A DNA stretch of 64,000 nt, from the NCBI GenBank assembly GCA_934096555.1, contig CAKOMD010000003.1, positions 15,489-79,488 of the forward strand, read 5' to 3'. A model generated the notes under the pieces. The model did no database searches and was not told the origin of the DNA. It saw nothing but the letters and a program-made list of their open reading frames with translations. Below, piece after piece: positions 1,408 to 61,580 of this stretch (position 1 is the first letter of the stretch; every line of letters starts with the position of its first letter). The position numbers were made by a program, and so were the translations under genes. Origin of the DNA: an uncultured Bacilli bacterium. GTDB lineage: Bacteria; Bacillota_I; Bacilli_A; RF39; UBA660.

Positions 1408-1464
1408 CACTTTAAGCCTAGGTCTTAAAGTGTTTATTTGAGTCAAAGTATTGTCTCAAATAAA
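1408..1464 (+). repeat. tandem intergenic hairpin pair (family A1-A2)
   Basis: cactttaag-CCTAGGT-cttaaagtg is directly followed by tttatttgag-TCAAAGTATTGT-ctcaaataaa. Both stems are perfect, and the stem ends AG/CT are as in the other family members. Confidence 0.7.
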
Positions 1465-1507
1465 TATATCAGCCATATCTATTATATATAAGCATAGTCA
1501 CAAGAAT

Positions 1508-1534
1508 TAAAAAAAGTTATACCGAAGTACAACT
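1508..1534 (-). terminator. rho-independent terminator after abgT-family gene
   Basis: On the minus strand: AGTTGTAC-TTCG-GTATAACT followed by a T-run. Confidence 0.6.
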
Positions 1535-1540
1535 TTTTAT

Positions 1541-3076
1541 TTATAACATAACACTAGTACCAAATCCTATGGGAATTCCCATGATATAGAAGGCTAACAT
1601 TATAACAAAATATAATATTACAAAAGCAATAGTATAAGGAACCATTAATGACATAGCATCAGTAATAGTAATAACATCATTCTTTCTCTTATCATAAATA
1701 TGTAAGAAACCAATTAGTATAACAAAGTAACTAAATACTGGAGTAATACCCTTTATACAAGAATCCCCAGCTCTAAAGACAACTTCAGCAAATTCAGGAG
1801 TCATAGAGCTTTGCATAAACATTGGAACAATTACTGGTGAAATCATAGCCCATTTAGTCGAAGCCATAGGAACAAAGAACGTTGATAAAGCTACTACTAA
1901 GAATGTAATAACAACAAGAGCAAGTCCTGATAGTTGCATACCATTAAGTAATTCAGATAAAGAAGCTACAATAAATAAACCTATGTTAGTTTCCCTAAAT
2001 ATCATACAGAATTGTGAAGCAAAGAATATAAGTACTAATAAAGAAGCAACATCCTTTAAATAATAACTCATTCCATCAACCAAATCTCTATTATTATTTA
2101 TTGTTTTTACTCTCATTCCATATATTAATGAACTAAATATAAGTAAGAATGAAAATATAGTAACAGAACCTTGATAAAAGTAAGAACCTTCTCCAAATAA
2201 CATATCAACATATTTACTTTGACTAAGATCTAGGAATAGTCCTGAGAAAGGAAGACCTTTAATAATACAATATATAAGTAAAAGACCAACTACCATTGTA
2301 GCAAGGAGTGCTATAGCAATACCTTTTCTCTCCTTCTTAGAAACTTCACCAACCTGTGATGGCTCCTCTTCATCAAAAGAATATTTACCAAGTTTTGGTA
2401 TAATGAATCTTTCTGTAACTATCATACCAACATAAGCAACAAGTATTGTACTAACTATAGTAAAAATAATATTACCAAATAAATTAACATTGTATGAAGA
2501 ATCAAGTATAAGTGCAGCTTTATTTGAGTAAGTAGTTAACATACTATCTAGCCTATTAACAATTACATTGCCACCATATCCAAAAGTAATACCAGCAAAA
2601 GCAGCACAGATACCCGCGGATGGATGTCTACCTAAATTCATAAATAATATTGCCGCTAACGGAATTAATATAACATATCCAACTTCATAAAACATTGAAA
2701 AGATAACGCCAAGAAGTACAACTAAGAAAGTAAGAACTTTTCTTGGTACTTTTTCACCAATAACTTTAAACATTGAATTAAGAAAACCACTCTTATATCC
2801 TACGCCAACTCCAAGTAAGCCAATAATTAAATTACCAAGAGGAGCAAAACTAATAAAATTGTTTAACATATTGCTAATCAAATACTGTAGACCGGTTCTA
2901 TTAAATAAATTATGTATATTAACAGTTTGTGTTGTCAAATCCCCTGTAACATCATTAACTACATAATAACTTGCCTCTAAATTAAATATGCTACCCAAAC
3001 TACTAAGTATCATAACAACTAAAGTAAGAATTAAAAATACTAAAGCTGGATGTAACTTAACCTTCTTTTTTTTCAT
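1541..3076 (-). CDS. AbgT-family (p-aminobenzoyl-glutamate type) transporter
   Basis: 511 aa polytopic membrane protein. The N-terminus (KLHPALVFLILT...) and overall layout are typical of the AbgT/MtrF family. A GGTGG RBS precedes the ATG. Confidence 0.75.
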   Translation of the reverse strand: MKKKKVKLHPALVFLILTLVVMILSSLGSIFNLEASYYVVNDVTGDLTTQTVNIHNLFNRTGLQYLISNMLNNFISFAPLGNLIIGLLGVGVGYKSGFLNSMFKVIGEKVPRKVLTFLVVLLGVIFSMFYEVGYVILIPLAAILFMNLGRHPSAGICAAFAGITFGYGGNVIVNRLDSMLTTYSNKAALILDSSYNVNLFGNIIFTIVSTILVAYVGMIVTERFIIPKLGKYSFDEEEPSQVGEVSKKERKGIAIALLATMVVGLLLIYCIIKGLPFSGLFLDLSQSKYVDMLFGEGSYFYQGSVTIFSFLLIFSSLIYGMRVKTINNNRDLVDGMSYYLKDVASLLVLIFFASQFCMIFRETNIGLFIVASLSELLNGMQLSGLALVVITFLVVALSTFFVPMASTKWAMISPVIVPMFMQSSMTPEFAEVVFRAGDSCIKGITPVFSYFVILIGFLHIYDKRKNDVITITDAMSLMVPYTIAFVILYFVIMLAFYIMGIPIGFGTSVML

Positions 3077-5809: not shown

Positions 5810-5822
5810 TAACAAAATATCA

Positions 5823-8129
5823 CTAGGCTTTAGTGATATTTTTTTCATATTCATTTAACTTATCAATATATACATTCTTCGCATTATTAATAATTGCTTC
5901 CAATATAACATTTTCTATTCCTCTAGAAATAATTTTATCAAGACGCCTTGCCCCAAATTCAAAAAAGTTACTTTCTTTAATAATTTTATCTACCACATCA
6001 TCAGCATATTTTATATTAATATTTGAATATTTTTTACTAATAGATTCTAATTTGTTAGTAATAATCCTTCTAACATCATTTTCATTTAATCTATCAAAAG
6101 TCATTATACCATCTATTCTATTAATAAATGCCATTGAAAAACTATTTTTTAAATCATTTATACTATTGATATTTTTATTAAAGCCAATACTATTCTTTTC
6201 AAATCCAACATTTGAGGTCATAATAATTACTACATTATTAAATCTAACTGTAACACCTTTAGCATTTTTTATTTTGCCTTCTTCCAATATCTGATAAAAT
6301 AAATTAATAACAGAAGGATAGGCTTTATCTATTTCATCAAGCAATAATACCGAATTAGGTTTATTTCTAATTTCTTCCAAAATGTTTTTATTATCATCGT
6401 ATCCAACATATCCTGGAGAAGAGCCAAGTATCTTATTAACTGAAGTACTATCACTGTATTCACTCATATCAAGTCTAATAAAATTATTTTCGCCTACTAA
6501 AAGTTTAGCATATTCTTTAGCCAAGCATGTCTTACCTACTCCAGATGGACCAATAAACAGCATAGAGTAACATTTATTGTCACCATATTTAATTCTTTTA
6601 GTAATATTCATAAGACTATCAATAACATTATCATGACCAATAATAATACTCTTTAGTTTCCTTTCCATCTCATAAATACTATCTATATTACTACTAAGTA
6701 TATCTTCAGTAGGTATTTTTACCCTATTACCAATAACAAAAGCAATATCTGAAATAGTAACTTCATTCTTTTTAATATTACAAGATAATTCTAGTTCATT
6801 AAGTTCTGACATTAACCTAGCTTCTTTCTTCCTAATATCAAGAGCTTTATCAATATCGTTATCAATAATAAAACTATTCTTTTCTTTACTCAACTTATTA
6901 ATTTCTTTTTTAATATTCTTTAATCTATCAGTACCAACTTCCTTCATACTAACTCTAGCGCAAACTTCATCTAATACATCAATTTCTTTGTCAGGTCTAT
7001 TTCTATCAAATATATATTTTTCAGACATATCAACTAATTTATTAAGTATATCATCACTAATAACAACATTATGATACCTCTCATATATACTTCTTATATT
7101 AAATAAAATATTTTTAGTTTCAGTAATACTTGGTTCATCAACAAACACCTTTTGAAATCTTCTTTCCAAAGCAGAATCTTTCTCAATAAACTTCTTATAT
7201 TCTTCTGTAGTAGTAGCTCCTAGGCATCTAATTTTACCTCTAGCTAAAGAAGGTTTTAATATATTTGAAGCATCTATTGCACCTTCAGCACCTCCTGCAC
7301 CAACTAAAGTATGAATTTCATCTATAAACAAAATAATTTCTGTATTATCCTCAATTTCTTTAAGTACTTTTTTCATTCTTTCTTCAAATTCACCACGATA
7401 CTTAGTTCCAGCAACCATCGTAGCCATATCTAAAGAAATAACCCTTTTACCTATTAATCCAGATGGAACATCTTCATTAGCAATTAATCTAGATAGTTCT
7501 TCTACAATAGCAGTTTTGCCTACTCCTGCTTCACCAATCAAAATAGGATTATTTTTAGTTCTCCTACAAAGTATTTCCATTACACTTCTTACTTCTTTTT
7601 CTCTACCGATTACAGGATCTAATTTACCATTTTTAGCTTCATTAGTCAGATCAATTCCTAAATCATCTATAAGCAGTTTTTTCTTCTTATTCTTCTTACT
7701 TTTCTTTATAAGACTAGTAGAGAAATCATCATACATAGATTCTACATCAATATCCATGCCGATTAGTATTCTAATAGCAATACCTTCACCCTCTTCTAGC
7801 ATTGAAAAAAATAAGTGTTCTAAAGTTACCTCACCATCATTATTATCTTTACTATCCATAATAGCAGATTCAATCACTTTTCTAAGTAATGGTGTATATA
7901 AAAAATATTCACTTTTCTTTTTACTAGTACCTACTACTTTAGATAATTCTTCTTTAAATTTTTCATAGTAGATACCATAACTATTTAATCTTTCAGTAAT
8001 ATTACTATCAATATTCAAAATAGAAAGAAGTAAATGTTCTGTTCCTATATATGGATGTCCTAAATCCAACATTTCTTTTTTTGCATTCATTAGTGCGGTT
8101 TGTGCTTCCTCATTAAAATTTCCTATCAT
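5823..8129 (-). CDS. clpC: ATP-dependent Clp protease ATP-binding subunit ClpC
   Basis: 768 aa with an N-terminal Clp repeat (HPYIGTEHLLL) and two AAA+ modules carrying GEAGVGKT and GPSGVGKT Walker A motifs. Confidence 0.9.
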   Translation of the reverse strand: MIGNFNEEAQTALMNAKKEMLDLGHPYIGTEHLLLSILNIDSNITERLNSYGIYYEKFKEELSKVVGTSKKKSEYFLYTPLLRKVIESAIMDSKDNNDGEVTLEHLFFSMLEEGEGIAIRILIGMDIDVESMYDDFSTSLIKKSKKNKKKKLLIDDLGIDLTNEAKNGKLDPVIGREKEVRSVMEILCRRTKNNPILIGEAGVGKTAIVEELSRLIANEDVPSGLIGKRVISLDMATMVAGTKYRGEFEERMKKVLKEIEDNTEIILFIDEIHTLVGAGGAEGAIDASNILKPSLARGKIRCLGATTTEEYKKFIEKDSALERRFQKVFVDEPSITETKNILFNIRSIYERYHNVVISDDILNKLVDMSEKYIFDRNRPDKEIDVLDEVCARVSMKEVGTDRLKNIKKEINKLSKEKNSFIIDNDIDKALDIRKKEARLMSELNELELSCNIKKNEVTISDIAFVIGNRVKIPTEDILSSNIDSIYEMERKLKSIIIGHDNVIDSLMNITKRIKYGDNKCYSMLFIGPSGVGKTCLAKEYAKLLVGENNFIRLDMSEYSDSTSVNKILGSSPGYVGYDDNKNILEEIRNKPNSVLLLDEIDKAYPSVINLFYQILEEGKIKNAKGVTVRFNNVVIIMTSNVGFEKNSIGFNKNINSINDLKNSFSMAFINRIDGIMTFDRLNENDVRRIITNKLESISKKYSNINIKYADDVVDKIIKESNFFEFGARRLDKIISRGIENVILEAIINNAKNVYIDKLNEYEKNITKA

Positions 8130-8225
8130 ATTATTATTTCTCCTCTCTAAGATATTCTATGAATATAATGAGATGACTTTCTAAATTTTAATCAAGAAAA
8201 ATAGACTTTTTTTATTATTTATATT

Positions 8226-8285
8226 CACTTTAAGCCTTTCCTTTTAGTCTTAAAGTGCTGTTATTAGCCTAAAGTCTAATAACAG
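8226..8285 (+). repeat. tandem intergenic hairpin pair (family B1-B2)
   Basis: cactttaag-CCTTTCCTTTTAGT-cttaaagtg abuts ctgttattag-CCTAAAGT-ctaataacag. Both stems are perfect. Confidence 0.75.
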
Positions 8286-8324
8286 TGTATCTACATACCT
8301 ATCATATAGAAGCCAAGTTAACAT

Positions 8325-8370: not shown

Positions 8371-9822
8371 TTATATTAATGACATTACTAAGATTACTAG
8401 TATTACTACTAATAATAGCATTAATACAAATCTCCATATATATTTTACCCAAGTAGTATATGGAACATCAAAATATTTAAGAGCAAATATTACTAATAAA
8501 CTAGTAGGCCCTATAATACTAACAATACCATAAACACTTTGGAATAATAAAGCATATACAGAATATAATGATTCATCAGTTACTTGAGCTATCATTGTAG
8601 AATATACACCAGCAGCAGTATAATATAAATCAGAATGAAGAAGAGTTCCTAAACCACTAATTAATGTTCCTGTTAAAACATTTAATCCTAGCTTAGACTC
8701 AGAAATCAAACTAATTATATTAGACATGAATCCAAAGTTATAAGCACATACTAATATAGCAGATGCAAGCATAACTAAGAATACAGCTGGTACCATTTTT
8801 TTAGCACCATTCATAAAGTTGTCAACAACATCATCAAACTTAACTCTATAAATAAATTTAAGAATTAAAGTAAATAGAATTAAAGTTGTAATTATTGACA
8901 TATATGAACCAAGACTAGCCCAATTACCCAATGAAGATGCATTAGCGGTAATAACATTAGAGAATACTTTGAAATCTCCAATTTTTATTCCAAGCAACCA
9001 TTCATTAAATTTATTAAAGCATTCTATACCAAATAATGTATTCCAAGGTAAATATCCTAAAATAAGAATAACAAGTATTACTGATAGAACAACAACTATA
9101 GGCCATGTTCTAATGTTTTTGTAATCACCTTTAACTTCAGAAACTAACACTTCATTACTATCATTTAATTCATACTTAACTTTCTTTTCTTGAACATTTT
9201 TAATATATCTTAATATGAAGAATATAAGTAAAGCAACTCCAAGAACAAGAAGAATTAATTTAGCCCATATATTAGAATATAAATCTAATGAAGACAATCC
9301 TTCAATAGTAGTAGCACTATATCCATAGTAACTATTAGGATTTCTAAATGTTATATAGATACCTCCTATAAAACCTACTAGCATTGAAACAACTGTTGAA
9401 CTAATGGCAACTAATTTGTCATGACCCATTGCTAATATAATTGCAGCAACAAATGGTACAAATACAAGAATAGCACCAATTAAACCTGTAACTGAAGTTA
9501 AAACAGCAAATAATATAGTAACTATTATTATAAATAAATTACTATGTGCCTTAACTTTAGTAGCTATATTATCAACTAATTTCTTATAAGCAGGAACTTC
9601 TTTTAATACTCCATAGAAAGCGCCAAGTACTAATAAATAAACAGCAGTGTCAAAGAAGTAATAAAATGATTGAGTAAAATTAATTAGAGTATCACCAAGT
9701 GGAATCATGTTAAATACTTTAAGTTTTTCAACAAATTGACCAGCTATTGCAAGACCTCCATTAACTAGCACAAGTGCTCCAAAAACAATCAATATTACTT
9801 TAAATAAACTATGTTTTTTCAT
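8371..9822 (-). CDS. polytopic membrane transporter, possibly YfcC/DcuC-like ion transporter superfamily
   Basis: About 483 aa from MKKHSLFK, preceded by an AGAGGAGG RBS, with at least 10 predicted TM helices. The family assignment is by overall resemblance only. Confidence 0.5.
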   Translation of the reverse strand: MKKHSLFKVILIVFGALVLVNGGLAIAGQFVEKLKVFNMIPLGDTLINFTQSFYYFFDTAVYLLVLGAFYGVLKEVPAYKKLVDNIATKVKAHSNLFIIIVTILFAVLTSVTGLIGAILVFVPFVAAIILAMGHDKLVAISSTVVSMLVGFIGGIYITFRNPNSYYGYSATTIEGLSSLDLYSNIWAKLILLVLGVALLIFFILRYIKNVQEKKVKYELNDSNEVLVSEVKGDYKNIRTWPIVVVLSVILVILILGYLPWNTLFGIECFNKFNEWLLGIKIGDFKVFSNVITANASSLGNWASLGSYMSIITTLILFTLILKFIYRVKFDDVVDNFMNGAKKMVPAVFLVMLASAILVCAYNFGFMSNIISLISESKLGLNVLTGTLISGLGTLLHSDLYYTAAGVYSTMIAQVTDESLYSVYALLFQSVYGIVSIIGPTSLLVIFALKYFDVPYTTWVKYIWRFVLMLLLVVILVILVMSLI

Positions 9823-21009: not shown

Positions 21010-21063
21010 CTTAGAGAGCCTAAGGTCTCTCTAAGCAATACTGAGCCTAAAGTCTCAGTATTG
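21010..21063 (+). repeat. tandem intergenic hairpin pair (family C1-C2)
   Basis: cttagagag-CCTAAGGT-ctctctaag abuts caatactgag-CCTAAAGT-ctcagtattg. Confidence 0.8.
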
Positions 21064-21147
21064 AAGCATTTCATATTGTATAACTATTAAAATTAATTTT
21101 TTAATATATAATAACCTGCTTATATATAATATGTACGGTTGGTACAT

Positions 21148-21208
21148 TATTTTTAGACTACAGGCTAAAAATAACACTAGTAAGACTTATACATAAGGCT
21201 TACTAGTG
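21148..21208 (-). repeat. tandem intergenic hairpin pair, inverted orientation (family C3-C4)
   Basis: tatttttag-ACTACAGG-ctaaaaata and cactagtaag-ACTTATACATAAGG-cttactagtg. The loops are reverse complements of the CC..GT type. Confidence 0.75.
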
Positions 21209-32342: not shown

Positions 32343-32429
32343 TATAAGCTCCTTTTCTATCAACAAGTATAACAAAAAATAGTAGCTAGAACCAGTTATT
32401 TTAATTATACCCATCAACAAGTAAAAAAA

Positions 32430-32445
32430 CGTTCCACGTGAAACA
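32430..32445. other. parS site 1 of 8
   Basis: cGTTCCACGTGAAACA (15/16). No adjacent DnaA-box-like 9-mer. Confidence 0.7.
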
Positions 32446-32518
32446 TAACATGATGCTATTAAAATTCATTTATATTAACTAAATATTAACAAGATAATTA
32501 TAAGTTTGTGGATATACA

Positions 32519-32534
32519 AGTTTCACGTGAAACA
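32519..32534. other. parS site 2 of 8
   Basis: aGTTTCACGTGAAACA (15/16). TGTGGATAT at 32507-32515 lies 3 nt upstream. Confidence 0.75.
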
Positions 32535-32668
32535 TAGCTGATTCAAAATTGAATAAAGTACCATTTTAAAGCAAATAACGCAAAATTAAATGAAATTGAA
32601 AATAAAACACACAGAAAATGTTCTTTTTTAGATAGTATACTTAAAATATAAAGACTGTGGAAAAATCA

Positions 32669-32684
32669 TGTTCCACGTGAAACA
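32669..32684. other. parS site 3 of 8
   Basis: TGTTCCACGTGAAACA (16/16). TGTGGAAAA at 32656-32664 lies 4 nt upstream. Confidence 0.85.
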
Positions 32685-32852
32685 TTTGTAATTAATAGTA
32701 TAAGATAAAAAATTTAGTAAAATTTATCATGATTTTCTAAAAATAGTTGTATAAATAAATTTATTTGAATTGAATAATAAAAAAATTCATTATAATTGAT
32801 TATATATTTAATATATTAAAAACATTTTAGTGATAAAATATGTTGATATACA

Positions 32853-32868
32853 AGTTTCACGTGAAACA
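32853..32868. other. parS site 4 of 8
   Basis: aGTTTCACGTGAAACA (15/16). TGTTGATAT at 32841-32849 lies 3 nt upstream. Confidence 0.75.
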
Positions 32869-33022
32869 TACACTTTTTTATTATGTAATTACGTCTAATA
32901 AATATAAATACATCATATATATGATTATAAAAATTACAAAAATTTAATATCATTTATTGAAGCAGTTAATTAAAATATATTTAATATCAATAATTAAAAT
33001 AATTTTAGTTGTGGAAAACTCA

Positions 33023-33038
33023 TGTTTCATGTGAAACA
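33023..33038. other. parS site 5 of 8
   Basis: TGTTTCAtGTGAAACA (15/16). TGTGGAAAA at 33010-33018 lies 4 nt upstream. Confidence 0.7.
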
Positions 33039-33185
33039 TAGCTAATTCAATAATAGATAAAATATCATTTTTAGCCGAATACATGCAAAATTAAGTGAAA
33101 TTTTTAAAAAATATAATGAAAATGTTCTTTTTTAAGATAATGTACTGAAAATATAAAAGTTTAATAATTTGTTGTGGAAAACTTA

Positions 33186-33201
33186 CGTTCCACATGAAAC
33201 T
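33186..33201. other. parS site 6 of 8 (degenerate)
   Basis: cGTTCCACaTGAAACt (13/16). TGTGGAAAA at 33173-33181 lies 4 nt upstream. Confidence 0.45.
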
Positions 33202-33345
33202 TTATATTTACAAAGAAAAAATACACAAATATAAAACAGCTTAAGATTAATATGTAGTTTAAATATTTAATTTTTAAATATTTATAATAAAAATCTAATT
33301 ATTATATTATAATTATTACTTTCATGATTACATGTGGAAAACTCA

Positions 33346-33361
33346 TGTTTCACGTGAAACA
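33346..33361. other. parS site 7 of 8
   Basis: TGTTTCACGTGAAACA, a perfect 16-bp palindrome. TGTGGAAAA at 33333-33341 lies 4 nt upstream. Confidence 0.85.
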
Positions 33362-33551
33362 TTATAATATAATTAAAAATAAAATAGAAATTAAATATCA
33401 TTAAGTTAATTACAACATTATTGTTTAATCTTATATAACTAATCAACGATATAGTTTTAATTATTATATATAATAAATCTGTTCACAATTTTGATATATA
33501 ATAATTAAAAACTATAGTCTAATTCAAATATAAAAAAATTGTGGAAACTCA

Positions 33552-33567
33552 TGTTCCACGTGAAACA
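33552..33567. other. parS site 8 of 8
   Basis: TGTTCCACGTGAAACA (16/16). TGTGGAAAC at 33540-33548 lies 3 nt upstream. Confidence 0.85.
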
Positions 33568-33576
33568 TAAAAAAAA

Positions 33577-33649
33577 GATACACACATTAATAAAATGTTA
33601 AAGCTGCTGGCTTCCGCCCCTGACTTGATTCCATCATTAATGTTGTATC
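33577..33649 (-). ncRNA. ffs: small (4.5S-type) signal recognition particle RNA
   Basis: The minus strand forms one long hairpin: GAUACAACAUUAAUGAUGGAAUCAA-GUCAGG-GGC-GGAA-GCC-AGCAGC-UUUAACAUUUUAUUAAUGUGUGUAUC. The GUCAGG/AGCAGC loops and the GGAA tetraloop are the conserved SRP domain IV. It is followed by a U-run, and a TATAGT -10 element lies upstream. Confidence 0.8.
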
Positions 33650-33728
33650 AACAACACTATATCACATTTTAACAAAAAAAACAAGTATATATCAATCGCG
33701 AACATTTGTATGCTTAAAGTATACAATA

Positions 33729-33744
33729 TATTTCCCGGGAAATA
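33729..33744. other. Noc-binding site (NBS) palindrome
   Basis: TATTTCCCGGGAAATA, identical to the published Bacillus NBS core ATTTCCCGGGAAAT. It lies just downstream of the gyrA stop. Confidence 0.75.
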
Positions 33745-33764
33745 AAAAGAGTAAGCATTTTAAA

Positions 33765-38324: not shown

Positions 38325-38348
38325 AAATTATTTCCCGGGAAATAATTT
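38325..38348. other. Noc-binding site (NBS), extended 24-bp palindrome
   Basis: AAATTATTTCCCGGGAAATAATTT overlaps the recF stop codon, 23 nt upstream of the gyrB start. It is followed by an extra ATTTCCC half-site ending at 38351. Confidence 0.75.
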
Positions 38349-39565: not shown

Positions 39566-40027
39566 TTACATTTCTGTGTATTGCAAACTATTAAGTAATT
39601 TTTCTATTTTGATACACTTAGTAATTTGATTATCAATAGTAGTATACGGTGCCCTAATTTTTAATACTTTTCCACCTTTAAAATAAATTTCGGTATATTT
39701 TTTTTCAGCTTCTACATATCGTTCAATATTATTATAAGAAAGCCAAATACATTTATTAGATTCTGGTGAAGCTGTAGGAAATAATATTATTTTATTATAT
39801 TCAGAAAGTATAATAGGAGTTTTAATGTAATAATTAAAATGATCTATTACAAATTGTCTTTGAATATTATAAGAATGTCCATAGCAAAAACAACATTTCT
39901 TTAAAAACTTCAACGAATTACCTTTAAAAGTCAATCTTTTTGCCTTTTCTATAACCAAAACATTATTTTTCTCTATACTATCCTGAGTAAAACATAAAAT
40001 GTCTTCATTAATAATATAGTCTCGCAT
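39566..40027 (-). CDS. ComK-family protein
   Basis: Starts at MRDYIINEDIL. It aligns to Bacillus ComK blocks C.F.G.SY..R, K.PI, I.LFPT.S....C.W.S, T.I.F..GK and SY....Q. Confidence 0.7.
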   Translation of the reverse strand: MRDYIINEDILCFTQDSIEKNNVLVIEKAKRLTFKGNSLKFLKKCCFCYGHSYNIQRQFVIDHFNYYIKTPIILSEYNKIILFPTASPESNKCIWLSYNNIERYVEAEKKYTEIYFKGGKVLKIRAPYTTIDNQITKCIKIEKLLNSLQYTEM

Positions 40028-40271
40028 AAATTTTCCCCCTTCCCACATATAAAATATGTGAAAAATATTAAAGCATAAAGATATGTCGAATTTTGTAGAA
40101 AAATGTCGATAAAAGTAGTTTTTTTATTTTATTTGCACTATAGACTGCATTTTTAAGATCTATAACACTATCTTAAAACACATTTTACCAAAAAATAATA
40201 ACGTCATTCATATTTTTAAATGTAAGATATTTATAAAACATTTGATTTAGACTTCAATTCTATATTTTTAC

Positions 40272-40295
40272 TTATCCACATTAAATGTGGATAAA
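40272..40295. promoter_or_regulatory. inverted pair of perfect DnaA boxes
   Basis: TTATCCACA (40272-40280), a 6 nt gap, then TGTGGATAA (40287-40295). The pair lies immediately after the dnaN terminator. Confidence 0.75.
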
Positions 40296-43219: not shown

Positions 43220-44980
43220 TTAATTAGTTTTCCACTGTATCATCCATTTATCAAATACATGGGCGTTTGAACTCTGTGGTTCTGGATTAGGAAGTTCCAT
43301 TTTTACAATCATAGGTATCTTCATCATTTTACCAAAAGCCACACAAGTACCTGCTTGAAGTGATTTTTGCTTTTCTAAAACATCACTACTAATGTTTGGT
43401 ACCATCTTTTCAATATATTCTAAGTCAGCAGGATGATTAATCTTAAATATCAAGAAATTACTACATTGCGATAATACAGTTTCTGATAATTCAGTAGGTC
43501 TTTGTGTTACTAAATCCATCATAACGCCAAACTTTCTACCTTCCTTAGCTATTCTTTCAAATATATTATATCCAAGTATATCATTATCAATATCTTTCTG
43601 AACATATCTATGTGCTTCTTCAAGCATGATATTAATAGGCATAGAGCCCCTCGAAGGAAGACTCTTCATAAAATTAAAGAATATTCTAGAATAAATTTTA
43701 ACTAAAGCCTTAGCAAATCTATCATCAATACCTTCGAGTACAAAATTAATAATTTGTGCTCTCTTGTTACCATTCACTAGTATTAAGTCAGATATAAATT
43801 CATTAATAGTACAAAACTTTTCTACTTCAAAATACCTTCTCAAAGAACTATTAGCAATACTATGTAATTTAACTTTTAAAGCAGTACCTTCTGCATAAGA
43901 CTTCTCATTAAGAAGAACTCCTTCAGATATTAAAGTAAAATTAAGTGCCTCCTCTAAATCATCAATAGTAAAATATACAGGTGTATAATCTTCTTTCCAT
44001 TTAGTATCATTATCAATAAATTTCTTAATATATTCTGTAATAAGAACTCTCTCAGCAAATTGTCCTTGACTATCTATTTCAAAGCATTTTCTAAATTGTC
44101 TCGTATAACCAACACCAGGAACATCAACGTCCAAGTTAAGTTCTTTAGTACTACAACTAGTTAAAATAGAAAATATTTGGTCTCTTATTCTAGCAGATAC
44201 TTGATTAGAATAAAGAACAGATGTAATAGCGGTAGCAATTAAGTGATTCTTATACTTATTAGATTCTTCATCATTTCTTGCAAATAAAGAAACATAATTA
44301 AGCATTTTTTCAATAACCATAATTTGACTATAAGTACTAACATCAAGTAAATTAGCATAATCATCTACTGACATAAGCCATAAAGGTAATTTTAAAATAC
44401 TATTATTACTATCTGTATCAGTACTAAACATTTTATAATTAAAATTAAAATTATAACTATTAATAGATTTAAAAGCATTATCATATTCATCAGTATTATT
44501 AAATATAAATATAACACTATTAAATGGAATATAGTTAGGCATAGTAAATAAATTTTGTACTAGTCTAGCTACACCATATGTTTTACCACTACCAGTATTA
44601 CCAAATATAGCGGTATGATTACTCCACATATCATCAATATTAATTTTAACAGGGCTATTATTATATAAAGGAGATAGTCCAAGCATCATTGCCGTACTAT
44701 CATTGTAGCCAGTAAGTTCTGCTAGTTCATTGCCATTAATTATTCTTATTTTAGCATTAATACTAGGTTTTCTAATAATACCATCAAAAAATTTATCATT
44801 AATAAACTCACCTAAGAAAGTAATTTTAGCCTCATTATTAATTATTTCTTCAATTTCTCCTAGTATTTTTTTATTATTTTCCTCAAAAATAACATTTAAA
44901 TTAAGTAAGTCATCATTAATTACATTATCTATTTTAACGATAGCATAATTTTTACTAATTGCGGTAATTTCTTTAAACAT
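43220..44980 (-). CDS. HerA/FtsK-like (DUF87-type) hexameric ATPase
   Basis: 586 aa with an N-terminal HAS-barrel-like segment, Walker A AIFGNTGSGKTYG, Walker B MLEEAHRY and the VTQRPTELSETVLSQCSNFLIFK block typical of HerA. Confidence 0.7.
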   Translation of the reverse strand: MFKEITAISKNYAIVKIDNVINDDLLNLNVIFEENNKKILGEIEEIINNEAKITFLGEFINDKFFDGIIRKPSINAKIRIINGNELAELTGYNDSTAMMLGLSPLYNNSPVKINIDDMWSNHTAIFGNTGSGKTYGVARLVQNLFTMPNYIPFNSVIFIFNNTDEYDNAFKSINSYNFNFNYKMFSTDTDSNNSILKLPLWLMSVDDYANLLDVSTYSQIMVIEKMLNYVSLFARNDEESNKYKNHLIATAITSVLYSNQVSARIRDQIFSILTSCSTKELNLDVDVPGVGYTRQFRKCFEIDSQGQFAERVLITEYIKKFIDNDTKWKEDYTPVYFTIDDLEEALNFTLISEGVLLNEKSYAEGTALKVKLHSIANSSLRRYFEVEKFCTINEFISDLILVNGNKRAQIINFVLEGIDDRFAKALVKIYSRIFFNFMKSLPSRGSMPINIMLEEAHRYVQKDIDNDILGYNIFERIAKEGRKFGVMMDLVTQRPTELSETVLSQCSNFLIFKINHPADLEYIEKMVPNISSDVLEKQKSLQAGTCVAFGKMMKIPMIVKMELPNPEPQSSNAHVFDKWMIQWKTN

Positions 44981-45084
44981 AACTAGCCCTTCCTTCTATC
45001 TCTATTATAATTAAATTATACCAAATAAATATCAAAAAGAAAATAGTTTTTTATTTATTTCATCTCGCATTTCATTGCTCGCTG

Positions 45085-45138
45085 TTTTTGAAGCCTAAGG
45101 TCTTCAAAAAGAATTACTAAGCCAAAGTCTTAGTAATT
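45085..45138 (+). repeat. tandem intergenic hairpin pair (family D1-D2)
   Basis: tttttgaag-CCTAAGGT-cttcaaaaa is followed 1 nt later by aattactaag-CCAAAGT-cttagtaatt. The pair sits in a divergent promoter region. Confidence 0.8.
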
Positions 45139-48799: not shown

Positions 48800-48858
48800 C
48801 ACTCTAAGCCTGTAGTCTTAGAGTGTTAAATTAAGCCTTTGATAAAGTCTTAATTTAA
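48800..48858 (+). repeat. tandem intergenic hairpin pair (family E1-E2)
   Basis: cactctaag-CCTGTAGT-cttagagtg abuts ttaaattaag-CCTTTGATAAAGT-cttaatttaa. Confidence 0.8.
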
Positions 48859-48901
48859 AATCTATTATATAAAAGCCAATTCTACATACCTTAATTAAAA
48901 T

Positions 48902-48917
48902 TATTTCCCGGGAAATA
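48902..48917. other. Noc-binding site (NBS) palindrome
   Basis: TATTTCCCGGGAAATA in the divergent region between the GT2 gene and tmcAL. Confidence 0.75.
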
Positions 48918-48968
48918 TTTTCTTTGCATTATTTAGTTAAATATGTTATTATATAACCGGTGATAATT

Positions 48969-51450: not shown

Positions 51451-51486
51451 AAATTATTTCCCAAATTATTTCCCGGGAAATAATTT
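51451..51486. other. Noc-binding site (NBS) 24-bp palindrome preceded by an extra half-site
   Basis: AAATTATTTCCC (51451-51462) is followed by AAATTATTTCCCGGGAAATAATTT (51463-51486). The site lies between the polA stop and the mutM RBS, and its 24-mer is identical to the one at 38325-38348. Confidence 0.75.
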
Positions 51487-54069: not shown

Positions 54070-54147
54070 TATATCACCTAAGTCTTTCTATATATTAATT
54101 ATACTAAAAAAAAGACTTAAAATAAAGTATTTATAAGATATTTTATT

Positions 54148-54230
54148 AGTTCGAGCCTGTAGTCTCTCACTATCATTAAAGCCTAAGGTCTTTAATGAAA
54201 AATATGAAGCCTATAAATAGTCTTCATATT
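54148..54230 (+). repeat. three-hairpin intergenic element (family F1-F3)
   Basis: agttcgag-CCTGTAGT-ctctcact, cattaaag-CCTAAGGT-ctttaatg and aatatgaag-CCTATAAATAGT-cttcatatt. Confidence 0.8.
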
Positions 54231-54240
54231 TAAGAGTTTA

Positions 54241-55575
54241 TTACTTTATATTAAATAATTTAATATCATTTTTTTCAAGTTTAGGTAATTCTAAAGATTC
54301 TTTTTTCATATTCCAATTAATTTCATAATCAGGAAGAACCTTAGTTTTAATAGGCATCATTCTAGGAACCAAAATAACTTCATTAAAGAAATCTATAGTC
54401 TTTAGTTCTTCAATTGAAATAAGAGGACCTTTATTAGTATTACCACATAACTTACTTACTTCTTCTAGAGTATATAAATCATTTGCTAATAGATAAATAG
54501 TATTATCAAAGCACATTCTAATTAATTCAGTATTTTTACTACCATAAACATTATTTAAATTAGTAAAGTTTTTAATAAAAGCAGTAATTTTAATATTAAT
54601 TCCTCTAGCATAATTAAACTTACTATAAAAATCTACTATAGGTAATAAACTATCAAATCCATCAATAACTAAGTTAAATCTTTCATTTTTGTTTCCATAT
54701 AATTGAATACTACAAAAGATTTGATCCAATAATATAGTAATTAAATTATTAACATAACTTGAAATACCACTTATCACTATAATTGCAGTTTTTTCATTAC
54801 CAATATTAGTCATATCAAAGTCTGTTTTAGACATTGCATTAGATAATCTTTCTTTAGTAACAAATTTTTTAATTCTTTGATTAAATGTTACTAAAATACC
54901 AGCCTTTGTTTCAGGAGCAGTACCAAGTGTATTAAATAAGTATTGGTATGTACTAGAGTTTCTATTTATTGTATCAATAATATTTTCTTTGCTATTATTT
55001 ATTTGCTCAGACAAAGAAACTACACTATTTAAATTAATTTCTTCTTCTTTAGCCTTATCAAATAAGTATAGAACAAGACCAACAAAATATTCTATCGCAG
55101 TATTTTCCCAGAATATATCAGAATTATCATTACTATCATGTAATAAATAATATCCAATATTCTCTAACATTTCAATAGCCTTATCCATATTATTATTTTT
55201 ATATAATTCATAAGGAAAAGTAAGTACATTATAATACTTTCCTTTTTCTAGGTTAGCATAGTCTAATACTATAATATTATAATTATTATTTTTTAATTCA
55301 CCACCTATCTCATCTAAAATTTCTCCCTTTACATCATTAATAAATAATGATTCTCCAGCCTTAATAGCAAGTCTAATTTGTGGTAACATAACACCTTGTG
55401 TTTTACCACTACCAGGTGCACCAATAATAATAGTATGAGAATTATCATCTTTAATATATAATTTATTTTTATCATATCCCATTGGTATTCCTGATTTTTT
55501 GATATCTGAATTAATATCTACTTCTTTGAGAAATTTTAACATTTCCTCTTTAGTAGCCCATCTTGCATAATTCAT
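54241..55575 (-). CDS. soluble VirD4/TraG/TraD-like (type IV coupling protein family) ATPase, orphan
   Basis: Starts at MNYARWATKEEM after an AAGGAGA RBS. Walker A is IIIGAPGSGKTQG. The layout is T4CP-like, but no N-terminal TM helices are present. Confidence 0.6.
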   Translation of the reverse strand: MNYARWATKEEMLKFLKEVDINSDIKKSGIPMGYDKNKLYIKDDNSHTIIIGAPGSGKTQGVMLPQIRLAIKAGESLFINDVKGEILDEIGGELKNNNYNIIVLDYANLEKGKYYNVLTFPYELYKNNNMDKAIEMLENIGYYLLHDSNDNSDIFWENTAIEYFVGLVLYLFDKAKEEEINLNSVVSLSEQINNSKENIIDTINRNSSTYQYLFNTLGTAPETKAGILVTFNQRIKKFVTKERLSNAMSKTDFDMTNIGNEKTAIIVISGISSYVNNLITILLDQIFCSIQLYGNKNERFNLVIDGFDSLLPIVDFYSKFNYARGINIKITAFIKNFTNLNNVYGSKNTELIRMCFDNTIYLLANDLYTLEEVSKLCGNTNKGPLISIEELKTIDFFNEVILVPRMMPIKTKVLPDYEINWNMKKESLELPKLEKNDIKLFNIK

Positions 55576-55644
55576 TATATCATCTCCTTTCAAAAGCATT
55601 ATATTACCAAAAAACATAAAAAAGTTAAACAAAAATGGCTTTTT

Positions 55645-56142
55645 ATGATAAAATATATTTGGGAAGTGATTTTTATTTATTCTAACGAATTAGTATGTAA
55701 TATTTTAAAATATATTAATATCAATATAAATACAGAAATTACTATAATAAATTTAAGTAATATTTTTAGTTATGATAAAACATATATTATGAAAAAATTT
55801 AAAAGAGAATTAGGATTAACTATCATAGAATATATAAATAATAAGAGAATATTAAATAGTCTAAATGGTTATAAATCAAATACTACTATATTAAGAATAG
55901 CCTTATTAAATGGTTATAATAGTATAGAGTATTATTCTGAAATATTTAGAAATTTAGTAGGAGTCTCACCAAGAGTATATAAAAGATTTATTACACCTCT
56001 AAATAATTTAAATGAAGAAGAAACAAATACAATAAGAAATTCAATATCTAATTTAATTAATATTGAAAATAAAATACAAAAATATTTAAGTAATCAAAAG
56101 CCAAAAGAATTACCAGTTAGAAAATTATCGATATTTAAATAA
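55645..56142 (+). CDS. AraC-family HTH protein (DNA-binding domain only)
   Basis: 165 aa with two HTH units (LSNIFSYDKTYIMKKFKRELG; IALLNGYNSIEYYSEIFRNLVGVSPRVYKR). The start codon is uncertain. Confidence 0.65.
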   Translation: MIKYIWEVIFIYSNELVCNILKYINININTEITIINLSNIFSYDKTYIMKKFKRELGLTIIEYINNKRILNSLNGYKSNTTILRIALLNGYNSIEYYSEIFRNLVGVSPRVYKRFITPLNNLNEEETNTIRNSISNLINIENKIQKYLSNQKPKELPVRKLSIFK

Positions 56143-56147
56143 AAAAC

Positions 56148-56185
56148 AAAAAATGCACATTTTTCTTAAAATTTTGTGCATTTTT
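56148..56185. terminator. bidirectional terminator between convergent genes
   Basis: AAAAAATGCACA, a 15 nt loop, then TGTGCATTTTT. A second TGCACAA-TGA-TTGTGCA hairpin at 56206-56222 is followed by TTTTT. Confidence 0.55.
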
Positions 56186-56235
56186 ATATATTTTTAGTAC
56201 CATTTTGCACAATGATTGTGCATTTTTCAAAATTA

Positions 56236-56595
56236 TTATCCTTTTAAACTTATTATAACTCCAATTATTGAGTTGATAAAAGAAGCTATCAAAAATGTTA
56301 TTGATAGTATTAATCCAGCAATTGCTTTACCTTTTCCATTAATAGATTTTAATCCCTTGGCACTAAATATAATACCACATATAGTTACTGGATAACCAAA
56401 TAAAGGAATAATCCAAGCAGCAATAGAAACAAGTCCTAATATAAAACCTACTAAAGAACTTTTATCAGATTTATTGACATTACTATTAACATTATTATTA
56501 GTTTTATTTGTATTATTAATTAATACTCCACACTCTAGACAAATTGCTTGTTCCTCATTAAGTTTAGCTCCACAATTACTACAAAACTTAGCCAT
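56236..56595 (-). CDS. zinc-ribbon plus DUF4190-like membrane protein
   Basis: N-terminal CSNCG..CLECG zinc ribbon, an Asn-rich linker and two TM helices separated by a KGLKSINGKGKA loop. Confidence 0.65.
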   Translation of the reverse strand: MAKFCSNCGAKLNEEQAICLECGVLINNTNKTNNNVNSNVNKSDKSSLVGFILGLVSIAAWIIPLFGYPVTICGIIFSAKGLKSINGKGKAIAGLILSITFLIASFINSIIGVIISLKG

Positions 56596-56659
56596 ATACT
56601 ATACCTCCTCATCTGAGTAAATTATAACACAAGTAATACATATAAACAAACAATACATA

Positions 56660-56740
56660 AATTTAAAGACTATAAGGCTTTAAATTTTCAAATAAAGACA
56701 TTAGGCTTTATTTGATAGTGAGAGACCTTAGACTCGAACT
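56660..56740 (-). repeat. three-hairpin intergenic element, inverted orientation (family G1-G3)
   Basis: aatttaaag-ACTATAAGG-ctttaaatt, caaataaag-ACATTAGG-ctttatttg and agtgagag-ACCTTAGA-ctcgaact. The reverse complement aligns along its whole length with 54148-54230 and 61500-61580. Confidence 0.8.
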
Positions 56741-56783
56741 AAAAATAAAAGAAACATATAATTTAATATATGTTTCTAATTAA

Positions 56784-59700: not shown

Positions 59701-61409
59701 TCAGCATCATAATCTGCTCTATGATGAGCATCCTCTTCCCAAGGAACATTATATCTCTTAACCAAAGCAGATAAACTATGTCTAGAATATCCTGTATCAA
59801 TAGCTCTAGATAATTCTAATGTATCAATAACCGTATTCTGAAATTCACCTAAATTATATTTCTTCATTGCACTAGAAATAAATGAAATATCAAATTTAGC
59901 ATTATGAGCTACCATTGGTAAATCACCAGTCCACGCTAAGAATCTCTTAGTAACATTCTCTTCATTATCCTTACCCTTAACCATCTCATCAGTAATACAA
60001 GTAAGCGCGGTAATCTTGTCAGGAATATGTCTTCCTGGATCAATAAGTTCATCAAATCTATCAATAATAGTACCATCTTTAATCTTAACAGCACCAATTT
60101 CTATCATTTGGTCAGTACCACCAGCATTAAAACCAGTAGTCTCAGTATCAAATACCACAAAAGTAGTACCCAATAGAGGTCTATCATCACTTCTAACTAC
60201 AATATCGACAGTATCATCTACCACTGTAAGTTCAGTACCATATAGTCCCTTAAAATGCTTACTAGGATCTTCTATTCCCTTATTATGACCAGATATAATA
60301 CCATAAGCAATAGGAAAGGCCTGACAGCCACTATGATCGGTAATAGCAACACCTCTATAACCCATATCAATGCATCTACTTACAAGTTCACAAGTATGTT
60401 TACCAAGATCTATTCCAGTAATACCATCCATTTGACTCATCATTGTATGAGCATGAAGTTCTACTCTTTTAACAGGAGCATCATCCACTATCTCCTCAGC
60501 TACAGGCTTCTCTATCTTTTCTACATCTTTATATCTCGTAGTAAAAGTAAGTTCATTAGAAAACTTATCCATAGCTACTTTACCATAAAAATTATACCAA
60601 GAACCAACTTTCAGTAAATCCTTAATTCTAGCATATTCATCATTATCTTTAGTAAACATCTTAACATAAATACTATCATTATTATCAGTAACCTTAAGAG
60701 TGATAATTTTATAACCACTCTTAGATTCAAACATATCCATACCAAAGATAACACCTTCTATGGTAATATTATCTACTTCATACATTAAATCCTTAATCGG
60801 AGTAACACTTGTATCCTTCTTAGGTCTAAAGTACTTCTTCTCTTCAGTCTTAACTTCACTAGCAGTCTCTTTCTTAGGACTAACTACTTTAGGAGCCTCT
60901 ACCACTTTTTCACTCTCTATTTCTTTAAGTAATTCATTTTCTTTTTCTTCTACTAAACTAAGTTCTAAATTCTTATTAAAACCATAATCTTTAAGACAAT
61001 TATTAATATAATTAAGTTTCTCAATCAAATAAGAATTTTCTGCTTTATTATATACTTCAAATACATATTTATTATCTAAAATATTAACATTTCTACCAAT
61101 AAATACTCTATATTTATAACTATCATTACTAAATATATTAATTAAATTATCTATATAATCATTAATATACTCATCATTATCTTCACTTACTATAACACTA
61201 AGTTTAATATCTTCAATAGTACTAAAATTAATCTTAATCTTATTAATAAGTTCAGTATATATATATACAGGTAGTATCTTATCATTTTCAATAATAAAAT
61301 TCCATAATTTATTATTATCATAGACTACTATCTTCTTAATACTAGCCTTTTCTAAATAGTCAGTATTCATACCAATTTGATCTAGTAATCTCTTCATTTT
61401 ATCTTGCAT
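56784..61409 (-). CDS. polC: DNA polymerase III PolC-type alpha subunit
   Basis: 1541 aa with OB, PHP, DnaQ-like exonuclease (VVFDTETTG) and polymerase core domains. Confidence 0.97.
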   Translation of the reverse strand: MQDKMKRLLDQIGMNTDYLEKASIKKIVVYDNNKLWNFIIENDKILPVYIYTELINKIKINFSTIEDIKLSVIVSEDNDEYINDYIDNLINIFSNDSYKYRVFIGRNVNILDNKYVFEVYNKAENSYLIEKLNYINNCLKDYGFNKNLELSLVEEKENELLKEIESEKVVEAPKVVSPKKETASEVKTEEKKYFRPKKDTSVTPIKDLMYEVDNITIEGVIFGMDMFESKSGYKIITLKVTDNNDSIYVKMFTKDNDEYARIKDLLKVGSWYNFYGKVAMDKFSNELTFTTRYKDVEKIEKPVAEEIVDDAPVKRVELHAHTMMSQMDGITGIDLGKHTCELVSRCIDMGYRGVAITDHSGCQAFPIAYGIISGHNKGIEDPSKHFKGLYGTELTVVDDTVDIVVRSDDRPLLGTTFVVFDTETTGFNAGGTDQMIEIGAVKIKDGTIIDRFDELIDPGRHIPDKITALTCITDEMVKGKDNEENVTKRFLAWTGDLPMVAHNAKFDISFISSAMKKYNLGEFQNTVIDTLELSRAIDTGYSRHSLSALVKRYNVPWEEDAHHRADYDAEGTAYVFHKMISKLTMQNLSKISDLDKLIPKDEIYKFGRTYHFNAIALNKKGLKNLFKIISLANTTYLYKTPRILRSKLNELREGLIIGSGCYESEVFIEARSKEGEELTNIINFYDYVEVQPPEVYGHLIQTSDFKDENEIKEHIKKIITATKEAGKIIVATGDVHHFTREDKIYREIIVNQKVPGGGRHPLAKSSITSIPSQHFRTTKEMLNDFAFLGEELAYEIVVTNTNMVLDMAQEIEVIIDTGGIPFSPRVKSDDGKSYLDCPRVVTDLVFNRAKDWYGDNLPHNIEERISTELYGNIVYKCWEEKLKNEYQDISNEEFENKLFENLHNTLISGYDTVKELVTNYVREHWAEEDGELTDKALEKKVKKLFGGVIGGGFDPIYLIAQRLVKHSNDEGFLVGSRGSVGSSFVATMMGITEVNPLPAHYRCLKCKHSIFKDDDGKDLGATYSSGFDLPDKMCPVCGERLYKDGQDMPFATFLGFNADKVPDIDLNFSDLNQASAHEYTKVLFGVDNVYRAGTIGTVAEKTAFGFVKGYFEDKGITNKRSCEIERLAMGCTGVKRTTGQHPGGIVVVPDYMDVSDFTPFQFPAEDPTSAWRTTHFDYHAIDQDLLKLDILGHSDPTQLRLIQELSGTDVSKVPLDDKDTMSIFTSTKALGVTNEQIMCDTGTLGIPEFGTPFTISLVYETKPTTFAELIKISGLSHGTDVWLGNAQELIKNNIVPFKEVIGCRDDIMVYLMYHGVEPIKAFKIMEFVRKGKASKDPETWAKHKETMEKAGIESWFIDSCFKIKYMFPKAHAAAYVISAFRIAWYKVHMPAYFYASWYSTKATDFDIEAMIKGYDDIKRVLTEIEGKGYDATNKENGVSECLKVALEMAARGIKVAPYDLYKSKGMIFTVGDDKTIIPPFRAIDGLGDVVAKNIENEAERAPFISIEDFQTRCKVSQTLIEKMRSMGIFNGMPETSQLSLF

Positions 61410-61499
61410 AATACCACCTAAACTTCCTATCTAATATTATACTAAAAAAAAGAAGTAAATTAAACCTCTTTACAATCTTTTTTACAAGTTTTTATTTTA

Positions 61500-61580
61500 A
61501 GTTCGAGCCTGTAGTCTCTCACTACATAAAAAGCCTAAGGTCTTTTTATAGTAATTTAGAGCCATTAAGTCTCTAAATTA
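61500..61580 (+). repeat. three-hairpin intergenic element (family H1-H3)
   Basis: agttcgag-CCTGTAGT-ctctcact, ataaaaag-CCTAAGGT-ctttttat and taatttagag-CCATTAAGT-ctctaaatta. Confidence 0.8.

Follow-up and report, generated by a model that had tools for sequence, protein, structure and literature searches.

Tandem intergenic hairpin modules with a strand-specific fold, tentatively likened to repetitive extragenic palindromes, in an uncultured Bacilli bacterium

Repetitive extragenic palindrome (REP)-type elements have been studied mainly in Proteobacteria, and their function is still debated after 40 years. In Escherichia coli, binding by the REP-associated tyrosine transposase (RAYT) requires the C:A and A:G mismatches of the REP hairpin and is abolished when the mismatch is corrected; it is also lost when the sequence of the stem is randomised (PMC3479197). 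A GTAG/CGTC tag is a further feature of REPs, and the main text of the survey that describes it does not contain the word "Firmicutes" (PMC3733652). Populations of REP doublets forming hairpins (REPINs) are vertically inherited and ancient, and decay upon loss of the RAYT (bioRxiv 10.1101/2021.07.10.451892). Here we describe hairpin arrays in 64,000 nucleotides of DNA from an uncultured Bacilli bacterium (GenBank assembly GCA_934096555.1, contig CAKOMD010000003.1, positions 15,489 to 79,488), a stretch hereafter called the window. The arrays constitute a family not described before, made of two- or three-hairpin modules lying between genes. We tentatively interpret these modules as lineage-specific repeated extragenic palindromes, similar to REPs and to bacterial interspersed mosaic elements (BIMEs), that are read by a protein as a folded single strand.

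An original prediction, made by inspection of the window, had listed 21 hairpin copies in 8 intergenic spacers, and all nine of its clusters were confirmed in their positions. The apex motif AGCC-N(2-16)-GTCT occurs 26 times in the window against an expected 5.9 +/- 2.9, and 17 of the 26 sites carry perfect stems of 8-10 bp, a configuration that appeared in none of 100 first-order Markov simulations. The statement that stems of 8-10 bp are almost all perfect holds for 17 of the 21 copies. The other four comprise three imperfect hairpins with a conserved 2x2 internal mismatch, called HP0 below, and one hairpin whose apex has decayed. Single hairpins measure 24-34 nt and are separated within a cluster by 0-2 nt. 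Most of the long intergenic spacers had been thought to carry clusters; the proportion is about half (8 of the 15 spacers of at least 140 nt).

A scan of public metagenomes with a tandem-apex pattern that left the stem bases unspecified returned at least 120 loci, nearly all of them human-gut contigs of 23-31% GC, and these yielded 169 hairpin clusters representing 101 distinct sequences. Among polC relatives, the family is present in the nearest ones (L001, L002, L010 and L030; such labels designate related contigs or loci compared with the window) and in 0 of 76 more distant ones. The closest relatives bearing it are uncultured RF39/"Tenericutes"-like Bacilli. A PolC-based search with one genome per species led solely to uncultured gut metagenome-assembled genomes labelled Bacilli, "Tenericutes", Mollicutes or RF39-like, the closest match to the PolC of the window having 84% amino-acid identity. 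The organism therefore represents an uncultured, probably genome-reduced gut lineage, and the window itself is a chromosomal segment of 27% GC. Extrapolation from 9 clusters in 64 kb would give a few hundred modules per genome.

Two architectures recur among the modules. Read in the sense that the original prediction had called plus, a Type A module consists of a T-rich run (which often belongs to a canonical terminator as its tail), a first hairpin (HP1, consensus CACTCTAAG..CTTAGAGTG), a second (HP2, consensus TTNTTTNNAG..), a small hairpin of 4-5 bp with covarying arms (ATAC/GTAT, GTAC/GTAC, ATGC/GCAT) and an invariant 14-nt tail, (C)TATTATATATAAG(CC). A Type B module runs from the imperfect HP0 through HP1 to HP2. 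All hairpins of any one module share the same polarity, being direct and abutting. Modules also recur as tail-to-tail doublets with spacings of 71-201 nt, exemplified in the window by 21010-21063 and 21118-21208; the arms of the doublets are not complementary and have only the apex in common. Within the single hairpin, the 8-14 nt that had been described as a loop are mostly continued helix. The conserved core, AG-C-CT...AG-T-CT, is a helix interrupted, below a tip of variable length, by a mismatch of C with T, which is A·G on the opposite strand, and the longer "loops" pair internally, as in C[CTTAT gt ATAAG]T. The reported differences between stems are real; they are not arbitrary, however, as the stems form subfamilies that diverge from one another, CACTCTAAG and TAATTTAGAG being two examples.

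Covariation was assessed on 121 distinct sites from the window and related loci, picked by the apex alone (AGCC-N4-GTCT). Stem cells were paired in 85.5% of cases, as opposed to 57% after shuffling, and the covariation score was 0.68 versus 0.17, a value that 0 of 500 shuffles reached; slid controls gave 0.11-0.23. Double-sided changes affected all eight variable stem pairs, and G·U made up about 1-2% of stem cells. When 23 Type A copies were analysed with RNAalifold, 7 of the 9 lower pairs of HP2 displayed double-sided changes and none displayed one-sided changes. With covariation well above shuffled and slid controls, the central claim of the original prediction, a conserved apex with compensatory stem changes, is borne out.

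The invariant C·T near the apex (A·G on the other strand) and a tandem GA/GA in HP0 make the two strands of a module distinguishable. The strand that folds better is the reverse complement of the plus sense that had been taken as reference; we call it R-sense, and its apex reads AGAC..GGCU. On this strand HP0 is composed of 4 bp, GA, 3-4 bp, a loop, 3-4 bp, GA and 4 bp. The tandem GA/GA loop is invariant while the outer helix takes seven forms (TAGT/ACTA, CAGT/ACTG, CCTC/GAGG, CCCT/AGGG, CACT/AGTG, CCAT/ATGG and AAGT/ACTT) and the inner Watson-Crick helix six; on the opposite strand the same loop would consist of pyrimidine-pyrimidine clashes. The pair directly above the apex irregularity switches between C-G and U·G, which is possible on R-sense only, and single stem mismatches, read on the plus sense, comprise 13 A·C versus 3 G·T, so that most become wobbles on R-sense. 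Of 76 distinct clusters, 59 are more stable when folded as R-sense (p = 5e-7). Among orthologues of the module upstream of polC, the intermediates between compensated states are G·U pairs on R-sense, and the orthologue alignment folds at -20.9 kcal/mol on this strand versus -14.8 on the other. Given this strand-specific fold, the modules are best understood as being recognised in the form of a folded single strand.

Between co-directional genes, 29 distinct clusters are co-oriented and 31 anti-oriented, and the few clusters in divergent or convergent spacers follow no rule of orientation. Two of the modules of the window sit between divergent genes; occurrence in both orientations and in divergent spacers had been correctly reported. 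Many copies lie past a canonical terminator and before the next promoter; for others, the distance from a stop codon to the start of the module is 0-30 nt. Of 163 clusters, a single one falls inside an open reading frame. Among the 25 of 106 matched families listed, the neighbouring genes belong to unrelated, diverse housekeeping families, and no recurrent mobile gene or integrase stands beside the modules. A strand-specific fold that lies mostly beyond terminators and in random orientation points away from mRNA. The earlier proposal of selection on a folded RNA or single-stranded DNA (ssDNA) bound by a protein is thus upheld as regards the strand-specific fold, but its simple version, a folded mRNA element, is weakened because G·U pairs are nearly absent and orientation with respect to transcription is random.

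Service of the arrays as intrinsic terminators was rejected: at least 5 T in the 8 nt following the array were found in 12 of 58 clusters in the plus sense and in 3 of 58 in the reverse, and a terminator scan flagged none of the modules. Canonical terminators adjoin several modules as separate elements, and the hairpins are distinct from them and devoid of U-tracts, as had been noted. A second palindrome, AAATTATTTCCCGGGAAATAATTT, sits at gene ends as a terminator would, in the window at 38325-38348, about 48899-48919 and 51451-51486. It also follows polC in L001-L005, L030 and L058, being common to hairpin-bearing and hairpin-free relatives, and its left arm is often tandemly duplicated (aaattatttccc aaattatttccc gggaaataattt). 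As for promoters, the hairpins of Type A modules are immediately preceded, on the 5' side in R-sense, by an invariant box that contains TATAAT. A promoter function for this box (GGCTTATATATAATAG) is unsupported; it lacks a -35 element, and the downstream gene that it would face is co-oriented in no more than 8 of 17 cases. Read from the sequence, ychF appears to have an extended -10 of its own (TGTTATAAT) nearer the gene. Upstream of Type B modules, -10-like boxes are weakly enriched by position, and a sigma-70 consensus scan of the AT-rich window (132 sites versus 129 expected) was uninformative.

The history of individual modules can be followed at orthologous sites. The window, L001, L002, L010, L030, L083 and L158 all have the module upstream of polC. 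The stem of its HP2, TAATTTAGAG, is identical in six aligned orthologues save for the outermost pair in one, with a tip ranging from 8 to 15 nt; the stem of HP1 exists in the compensated states ATAAAAAG/CTTTTTAT and ATGAAAAG/CTTTTCAT and in the G·U intermediate ATGAAAAG/CTTTTTAT. Upstream of polA, a module persists in the same manner, with compensation, and is missing in L030, L004 and L005 despite retention of the adjacent promoter region. Module 48800-48877 is wholly absent from the orthologous site in L001 and L167. In a PolC tree, the hairpin-bearing window, L083, L001, L002 and L030 are interspersed with L003, L004, L005 and L058, which are hairpin-free in the sense that none was found in the 15-25 kb around polC (L010 is not on the tree). 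L003 has perfect 9-14 bp hairpins of another kind at 7777-7807, 8516-8542, 8810-8836 and 9496-9517; three of them share a different apex, ..CA-NNN-TG.., which suggests lineage-specific hairpin "dialects". In the DNA between the polC module and the -10 box of polC (61410-61498), a conserved direct repeat, TTGTAAAAA-N-(A/T)TGTAAA, is kept in all close relatives, including the hairpin-free ones, and may be an operator. Pairs resembling DnaA boxes (ATCAACA..TGTTGAT, TTATCCACA) occur just upstream of the polC module in several of L001, L002, L004, L010, L058 and L083 and are absent there in the window.

Breaks of synteny fall at modules as well. At the module 54147-54231, L123 (96% identical) tracks the window through polA, HP0 and HP1 and then diverges, while L150 (98.5% identical) has HP0-HP2 and the VirD4-like segment in common with the window and carries different DNA on the polA side. 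That segment, 54232-56745, is absent in L001; it encodes a VirD4-like coupling protein (CD1115 family), an AraC-type regulator and a zinc-ribbon protein and includes an extra inverted module. Also absent in L001 is 43220-44980, with a HerA-like helicase gene adjoining module 45061-45138. Both segments border modules and are probably remnants of mobile or defence islands. Some modules in unrelated contexts are ~85% identical. The modules of the window are listed in Table 1.

Table 1. Hairpin modules of the window; the strand is that of the better-folding (R-sense) strand.
Module	Coordinates	Strand	Components and setting
Type A	1408..1493	-	HP1 1408-1432 (CACTTTAAG/CTTAAAGTG); HP2 1433-1464, apex decayed to TC..GT; small HP3 1465-1479; conserved tail TATTATATATAAGC 1480-1493
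Type A	8226..8314	-	HP1 8226-8257; HP2 8258-8285; spacer/HP3-like 8286-8299; degenerate tail TATCATATAGAAGCC 8300-8314
Two-hairpin	21010..21063	-	CTTAGAGAG.., CAATACTGAG..; immediately upstream of an A-rich stretch and the promoter of the metG T-box leader
Type A, opposite orientation	21118..21208	+	tail 21118-21131; HP3 21132-21146 (TGTAC..GTACA); HP2 21147-21174; HP1 21175-21208
Type B	45061..45138	-	imperfect HP0 45061-45084; HP1 45085-45110; HP2 45112-45138; between divergent genes
Type A	48800..48877	-	HP1 48800-48825; HP2 48826-48858; tail TATTATATAAAAGCC 48863-48877; between divergent genes
Type B	54147..54231	-	HP0 54147-54172 (conserved 2x2 internal mismatch; R-sense TAGT GA GAG..CTC GA ACTA); HP1 54173-54198; HP2 54200-54231; upstream of polA
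Type B, opposite orientation	56659..56741	+	HP2 56659-56687; HP1 56688-56715; HP0 56716-56741 (conserved 2x2 internal mismatch); right after the polC terminator
Type B	61499..61580	-	HP0 61499-61524 (conserved 2x2 internal mismatch); HP1 61526-61549; HP2 61552-61580; upstream of polC

Annotated genes and RNAs of the window include ychF, an abgT-family transporter gene, a clpB-like gene, metG with its T-box leader, mfd, the signal recognition particle (SRP) RNA, gyrA-gyrB-recF, a comK homologue, dnaN-dnaA, polA and a PolC-type polymerase. The longest spacer, 32421-33764 (1.3 kb), holds the SRP RNA (33562-33659) and no hairpin module; within it, 33455-33510 contains a 17-bp perfect inverted repeat made of A and T only (TTTTAATTATTATATAT..). 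The homologue of the competence transcription factor ComK (39566-40048, minus strand; Pfam PF06338, E = 1e-23) lies between dnaN and recF. It gave rise to the idea that the hairpins are DNA-uptake sequences, which was rejected: the hairpin 12-mer is variable and never found inside genes. Downstream of dnaN, at 40272-40294, is a perfect inverted pair of DnaA boxes, TTATCCACA ttaaa TGTGGATAA. The GC skew is negative throughout the dnaA-dnaN region, and polA and polC, situated to the upstream side of dnaA, share its strand. There are two possible explanations: the skew may track the direction of the genes in this region, or the origin may lie elsewhere than beside dnaA. A tie between module orientation and replication is unsupported, with no dependence on gene direction (taken as a proxy for fork direction) and no flip across the dnaA region.

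Searches for known relatives of the modules gave the following picture. Rfam 15 at gathering score recovered only the T-box and the SRP RNA in the window and nothing at the modules, in agreement with the initial failure to recognise a structured-RNA motif; at E <= 1, no hit in 15 module-bearing loci overlapped a module. In viral contigs the motif turned up in one chance match, without stems. In the published literature the 12-mer occurs only in primers, and nothing relevant on RF39 hairpins was found.

How, then, are the modules best understood? A REP/BIME-like nature fits best because the elements form composite arrays, fold strand-specifically with purine-purine irregularities, are oriented independently of transcription, are placed between units, persist vertically with patchy loss and are associated with breakpoints. 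They represent a variant that probably works like REP but is not a member of the REP-RAYT family, since no GTAG/CGTC tag is present, the hairpins are direct, no RAYT was found in the ~2.6 Mb of fragments and it is the apex that is conserved while the stem is free. The original prediction could not match the hairpins to REP/BIME; this was right as regards membership, but in anatomy, genomic position and behaviour REP/BIME are the closest. Each R-sense hairpin offers a stem of 7-8 bp of free sequence, an invariant AG/CT step and an unpaired or A·G-mismatched purine, above which one or two C/U-G pairs lead to the variable tip. Type B adds a third hairpin with the invariant tandem G·A loop, and Type A has the small covarying hairpin and the 14-nt tail instead. 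One could envision the following mechanism. The invariant purine irregularities would be the features by which a protein recognises the folded single strand. The strand bound would most likely be ssDNA exposed in replication or repair, in the way that RAYT reads the mismatched bulge of E. coli REPs, and the binding protein would create, maintain or use the elements. If neighbouring transcripts are affected at all, for instance by being insulated or by having their RNA ends protected, this would be a secondary consequence.

Several findings weigh against this interpretation, which we hold as a tentative preference. No Y1/HUH transposase came to light: with validated IS200 TnpA as query, phmmer gave no match even at E <= 10 among 6,868 open reading frames from ~2.6 Mb of window and related fragments, of which ~1 Mb comes from the hairpin-bearing clade, and a crude search for the RAYT motif (HUH..Y..NP) found none in the same ~2.6 Mb. 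The foot of the hairpins, variable column by column, bears no conserved GTAG/CGTC tag; upstream of HP0 some copies have GTAG and others ATAG. The stems vary among copies although RAYT binding in E. coli needs the stem sequence, and the hairpins of a module are direct rather than alternating as in BIMEs. Cross-species sequence conservation of some stems suggests a function at the level of the host. Finally, when mismatches are sorted by the transcribed strand, 14 are G·U versus 4 A·C, a slightly better fit than apex polarity provides for the same subset (12 to 6), and this leaves room for selection acting on RNA. It is tempting to speculate further that the modules are the cis part of an undescribed system of genome-reduced gut Bacilli, in which a dedicated non-RAYT protein reads purine-purine irregularities (the A·G mismatch or bulged A and the tandem G·A) on arrays at operon boundaries, as ssDNA or as small R-sense transcripts. 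The arrays would then amount to a genome-wide "punctuation" or maintenance code conserved at individual loci, with sister lineages using other hairpin dialects (such as ..CA-NNN-TG.. of L003). We consider this extension possible but doubtful.

The main rival is a role in RNA. The arrays would be transcribed, as parts of untranslated regions or read-through or as small R-sense RNAs, and would provide sites for a global RNA-binding protein or nuclease acting in processing, "punctuation", end protection or sequestration. Tandem G·A loops are a classic RNA motif and accompany a strand-specific fold with G·U intermediates, and the 14-to-4 ratio of wobbles to A·C on the transcribed strand is in line with such a role. 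So are the many modules that begin within 30 nt after a stop codon, the TATAAT-containing box just 5' of the Type A hairpins on R-sense, the compensated persistence at orthologous sites and the locus-specific conservation of some stems. However, the asymmetric apex faces either way (29 versus 31), the Type A box faces a co-oriented downstream gene in just 8 of 17 cases, and numerous copies are found past canonical terminators or in divergent spacers. Moreover, G·U at about 1-2% of stem pairs is unusually low for a structured RNA, neither a U-tract nor another 3' end signal follows the arrays, -10-like boxes outside Type A lack positional enrichment, and Rfam provides no match. We judge a role in RNA rather unlikely on this balance. 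The scarcity of wobbles, with stems almost exclusively Watson-Crick and many columns free of one-sided changes, would be expected of passive palindromes without a dedicated partner, which would insulate units or absorb supercoiling and be kept perfect by intrastrand template switching (quasipalindrome correction), the apex being shared by descent. Their siting between terminators and promoters in either orientation also agrees with passivity. Nevertheless, template switching should erase the apex mismatch and the GA/GA loop, yet these are the most conserved parts; tips and loops should drift fastest, yet AGCC..GTCT is invariant, and the third hairpin retains its purine-purine mismatches across 7 helix variants. 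These properties render passive palindromes improbable.

The breakpoints invite yet another explanation, namely that modules resemble attC or target sites in structure and serve for the exchange of gene segments or the integration of mobile DNA. The absence from L001 of 54232-56745 and of the HerA-like gene beside 45061-45138 would fit, as would the breaks of synteny of L123 and L150 inside or beside a module. But the breakpoints fall at differing positions of the module, as in ordinary homologous recombination between dispersed repeats, and the neighbours of most modules are stable housekeeping genes. The 25 of 106 matched neighbour families listed include no integrase or recombinase, and the R''/L''..L'/R' boxes of attC were not found at the stem base; the conserved part is apical and orientation is mixed. 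This makes recombination or insertion sites very improbable. The least probable account is that the modules are decayed copies of a conventional MITE (a transposable element of the miniature inverted-repeat kind) derived from an insertion sequence. Copies are indeed dispersed, with ~85% identity between modules in unrelated contexts, their presence at orthologous sites varies between species, and tail-to-tail doublets recur at 71-201 nt. The module ends (CACTCTAAG.. and ..TATATAAGCC) are, however, unrelated, so there are no terminal inverted repeats, and no flanking direct repeats that would mark target-site duplications were seen. The arms of the doublets have only the apex in common, no near-identical copies exist within the window, and no transposase was found in the ~2.6 Mb of fragments. 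Stem pairing is kept by compensation across species-level divergence; the initial view that these are not plain copies of a MITE stands.

If the REP-like interpretation is correct, a structurally distinct analogue of REP in an uncultured gut lineage with small genomes would represent a natural experiment, in which conservation has shrunk to an irregularity at the apex and single copies persist at the same loci across species. The partner protein, once found, would make it possible to examine whether these elements act as replicators, as tools of the host or as both. From a practical standpoint, the modules can serve as clade markers in metagenomes and are likely hotspots of rearrangement and of assembly breaks.

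Comparison with described systems brings out both likenesses and differences. Multicopy small RNAs of the "cuckoo" type (PMC4615179) likewise string two or three hairpins together in tandem, with freely covarying stems below an apical motif that is conserved. However, they have few copies per genome, promoters, terminators and single-stranded seed loops, whereas the present family extrapolates to a few hundred arrays per genome, its apex is largely paired and no terminator follows the array. Integron attC sites, which are likewise read as a folded single strand, share a largely free sequence, conserved structure with extrahelical or mismatched bases, a tip of variable length and a position at the boundaries of exchangeable segments. 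They differ in having R/L boxes at the stem base, 2-3 extrahelical bases, a single orientation and an adjacent integrase, none of which is seen here. The subterminal imperfect palindromes of IS200/IS605 elements and of their miniature derivatives, the palindrome-associated transposable elements (PATEs), are single-strand hairpins with irregular stems, read on one strand by a Y1 HUH transposase, and like the modules they lack terminal inverted repeats and target duplications. In contrast to them, our family has no tnpA or tnpB nearby or in the ~2.6 Mb of fragments and no conserved guide or cleavage tetranucleotide that we could identify, and its copies are old and diverse rather than near-identical.

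REP, BIME and REPIN come closest. The present family departs from them in having no GTAG or CGTC tag at the foot and no RAYT detected in the fragments searched, and in conserving the apex and freeing the stem where REP conserves the stem. Its hairpins are direct and abutting (0-2 nt), whereas BIMEs alternate and have linkers; its modules do form inverted doublets but, unlike those of REPINs, with arms that are not complementary. It also comprises additional parts, the tandem G·A hairpin in one type and the 14-nt tail with a small hairpin in the other, and it is AT-rich rather than GC-rich, in a low-GC host of the Bacilli/"Tenericutes"-like kind, REP and RAYT being known in Gammaproteobacteria and others. 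Against these differences stand the shared properties. Both are short multicopy extragenic palindromes clustered in composite arrays, located behind stop codons and in the gaps that separate transcription units, in both orientations. Both are imperfect hairpins with a conserved purine-containing mismatch, which in REP is the key recognition feature. Both appear vertical, ancient, slowly decaying and patchy between lineages (bioRxiv 10.1101/2021.07.10.451892; PMC3733652), and both are associated with rearrangements.

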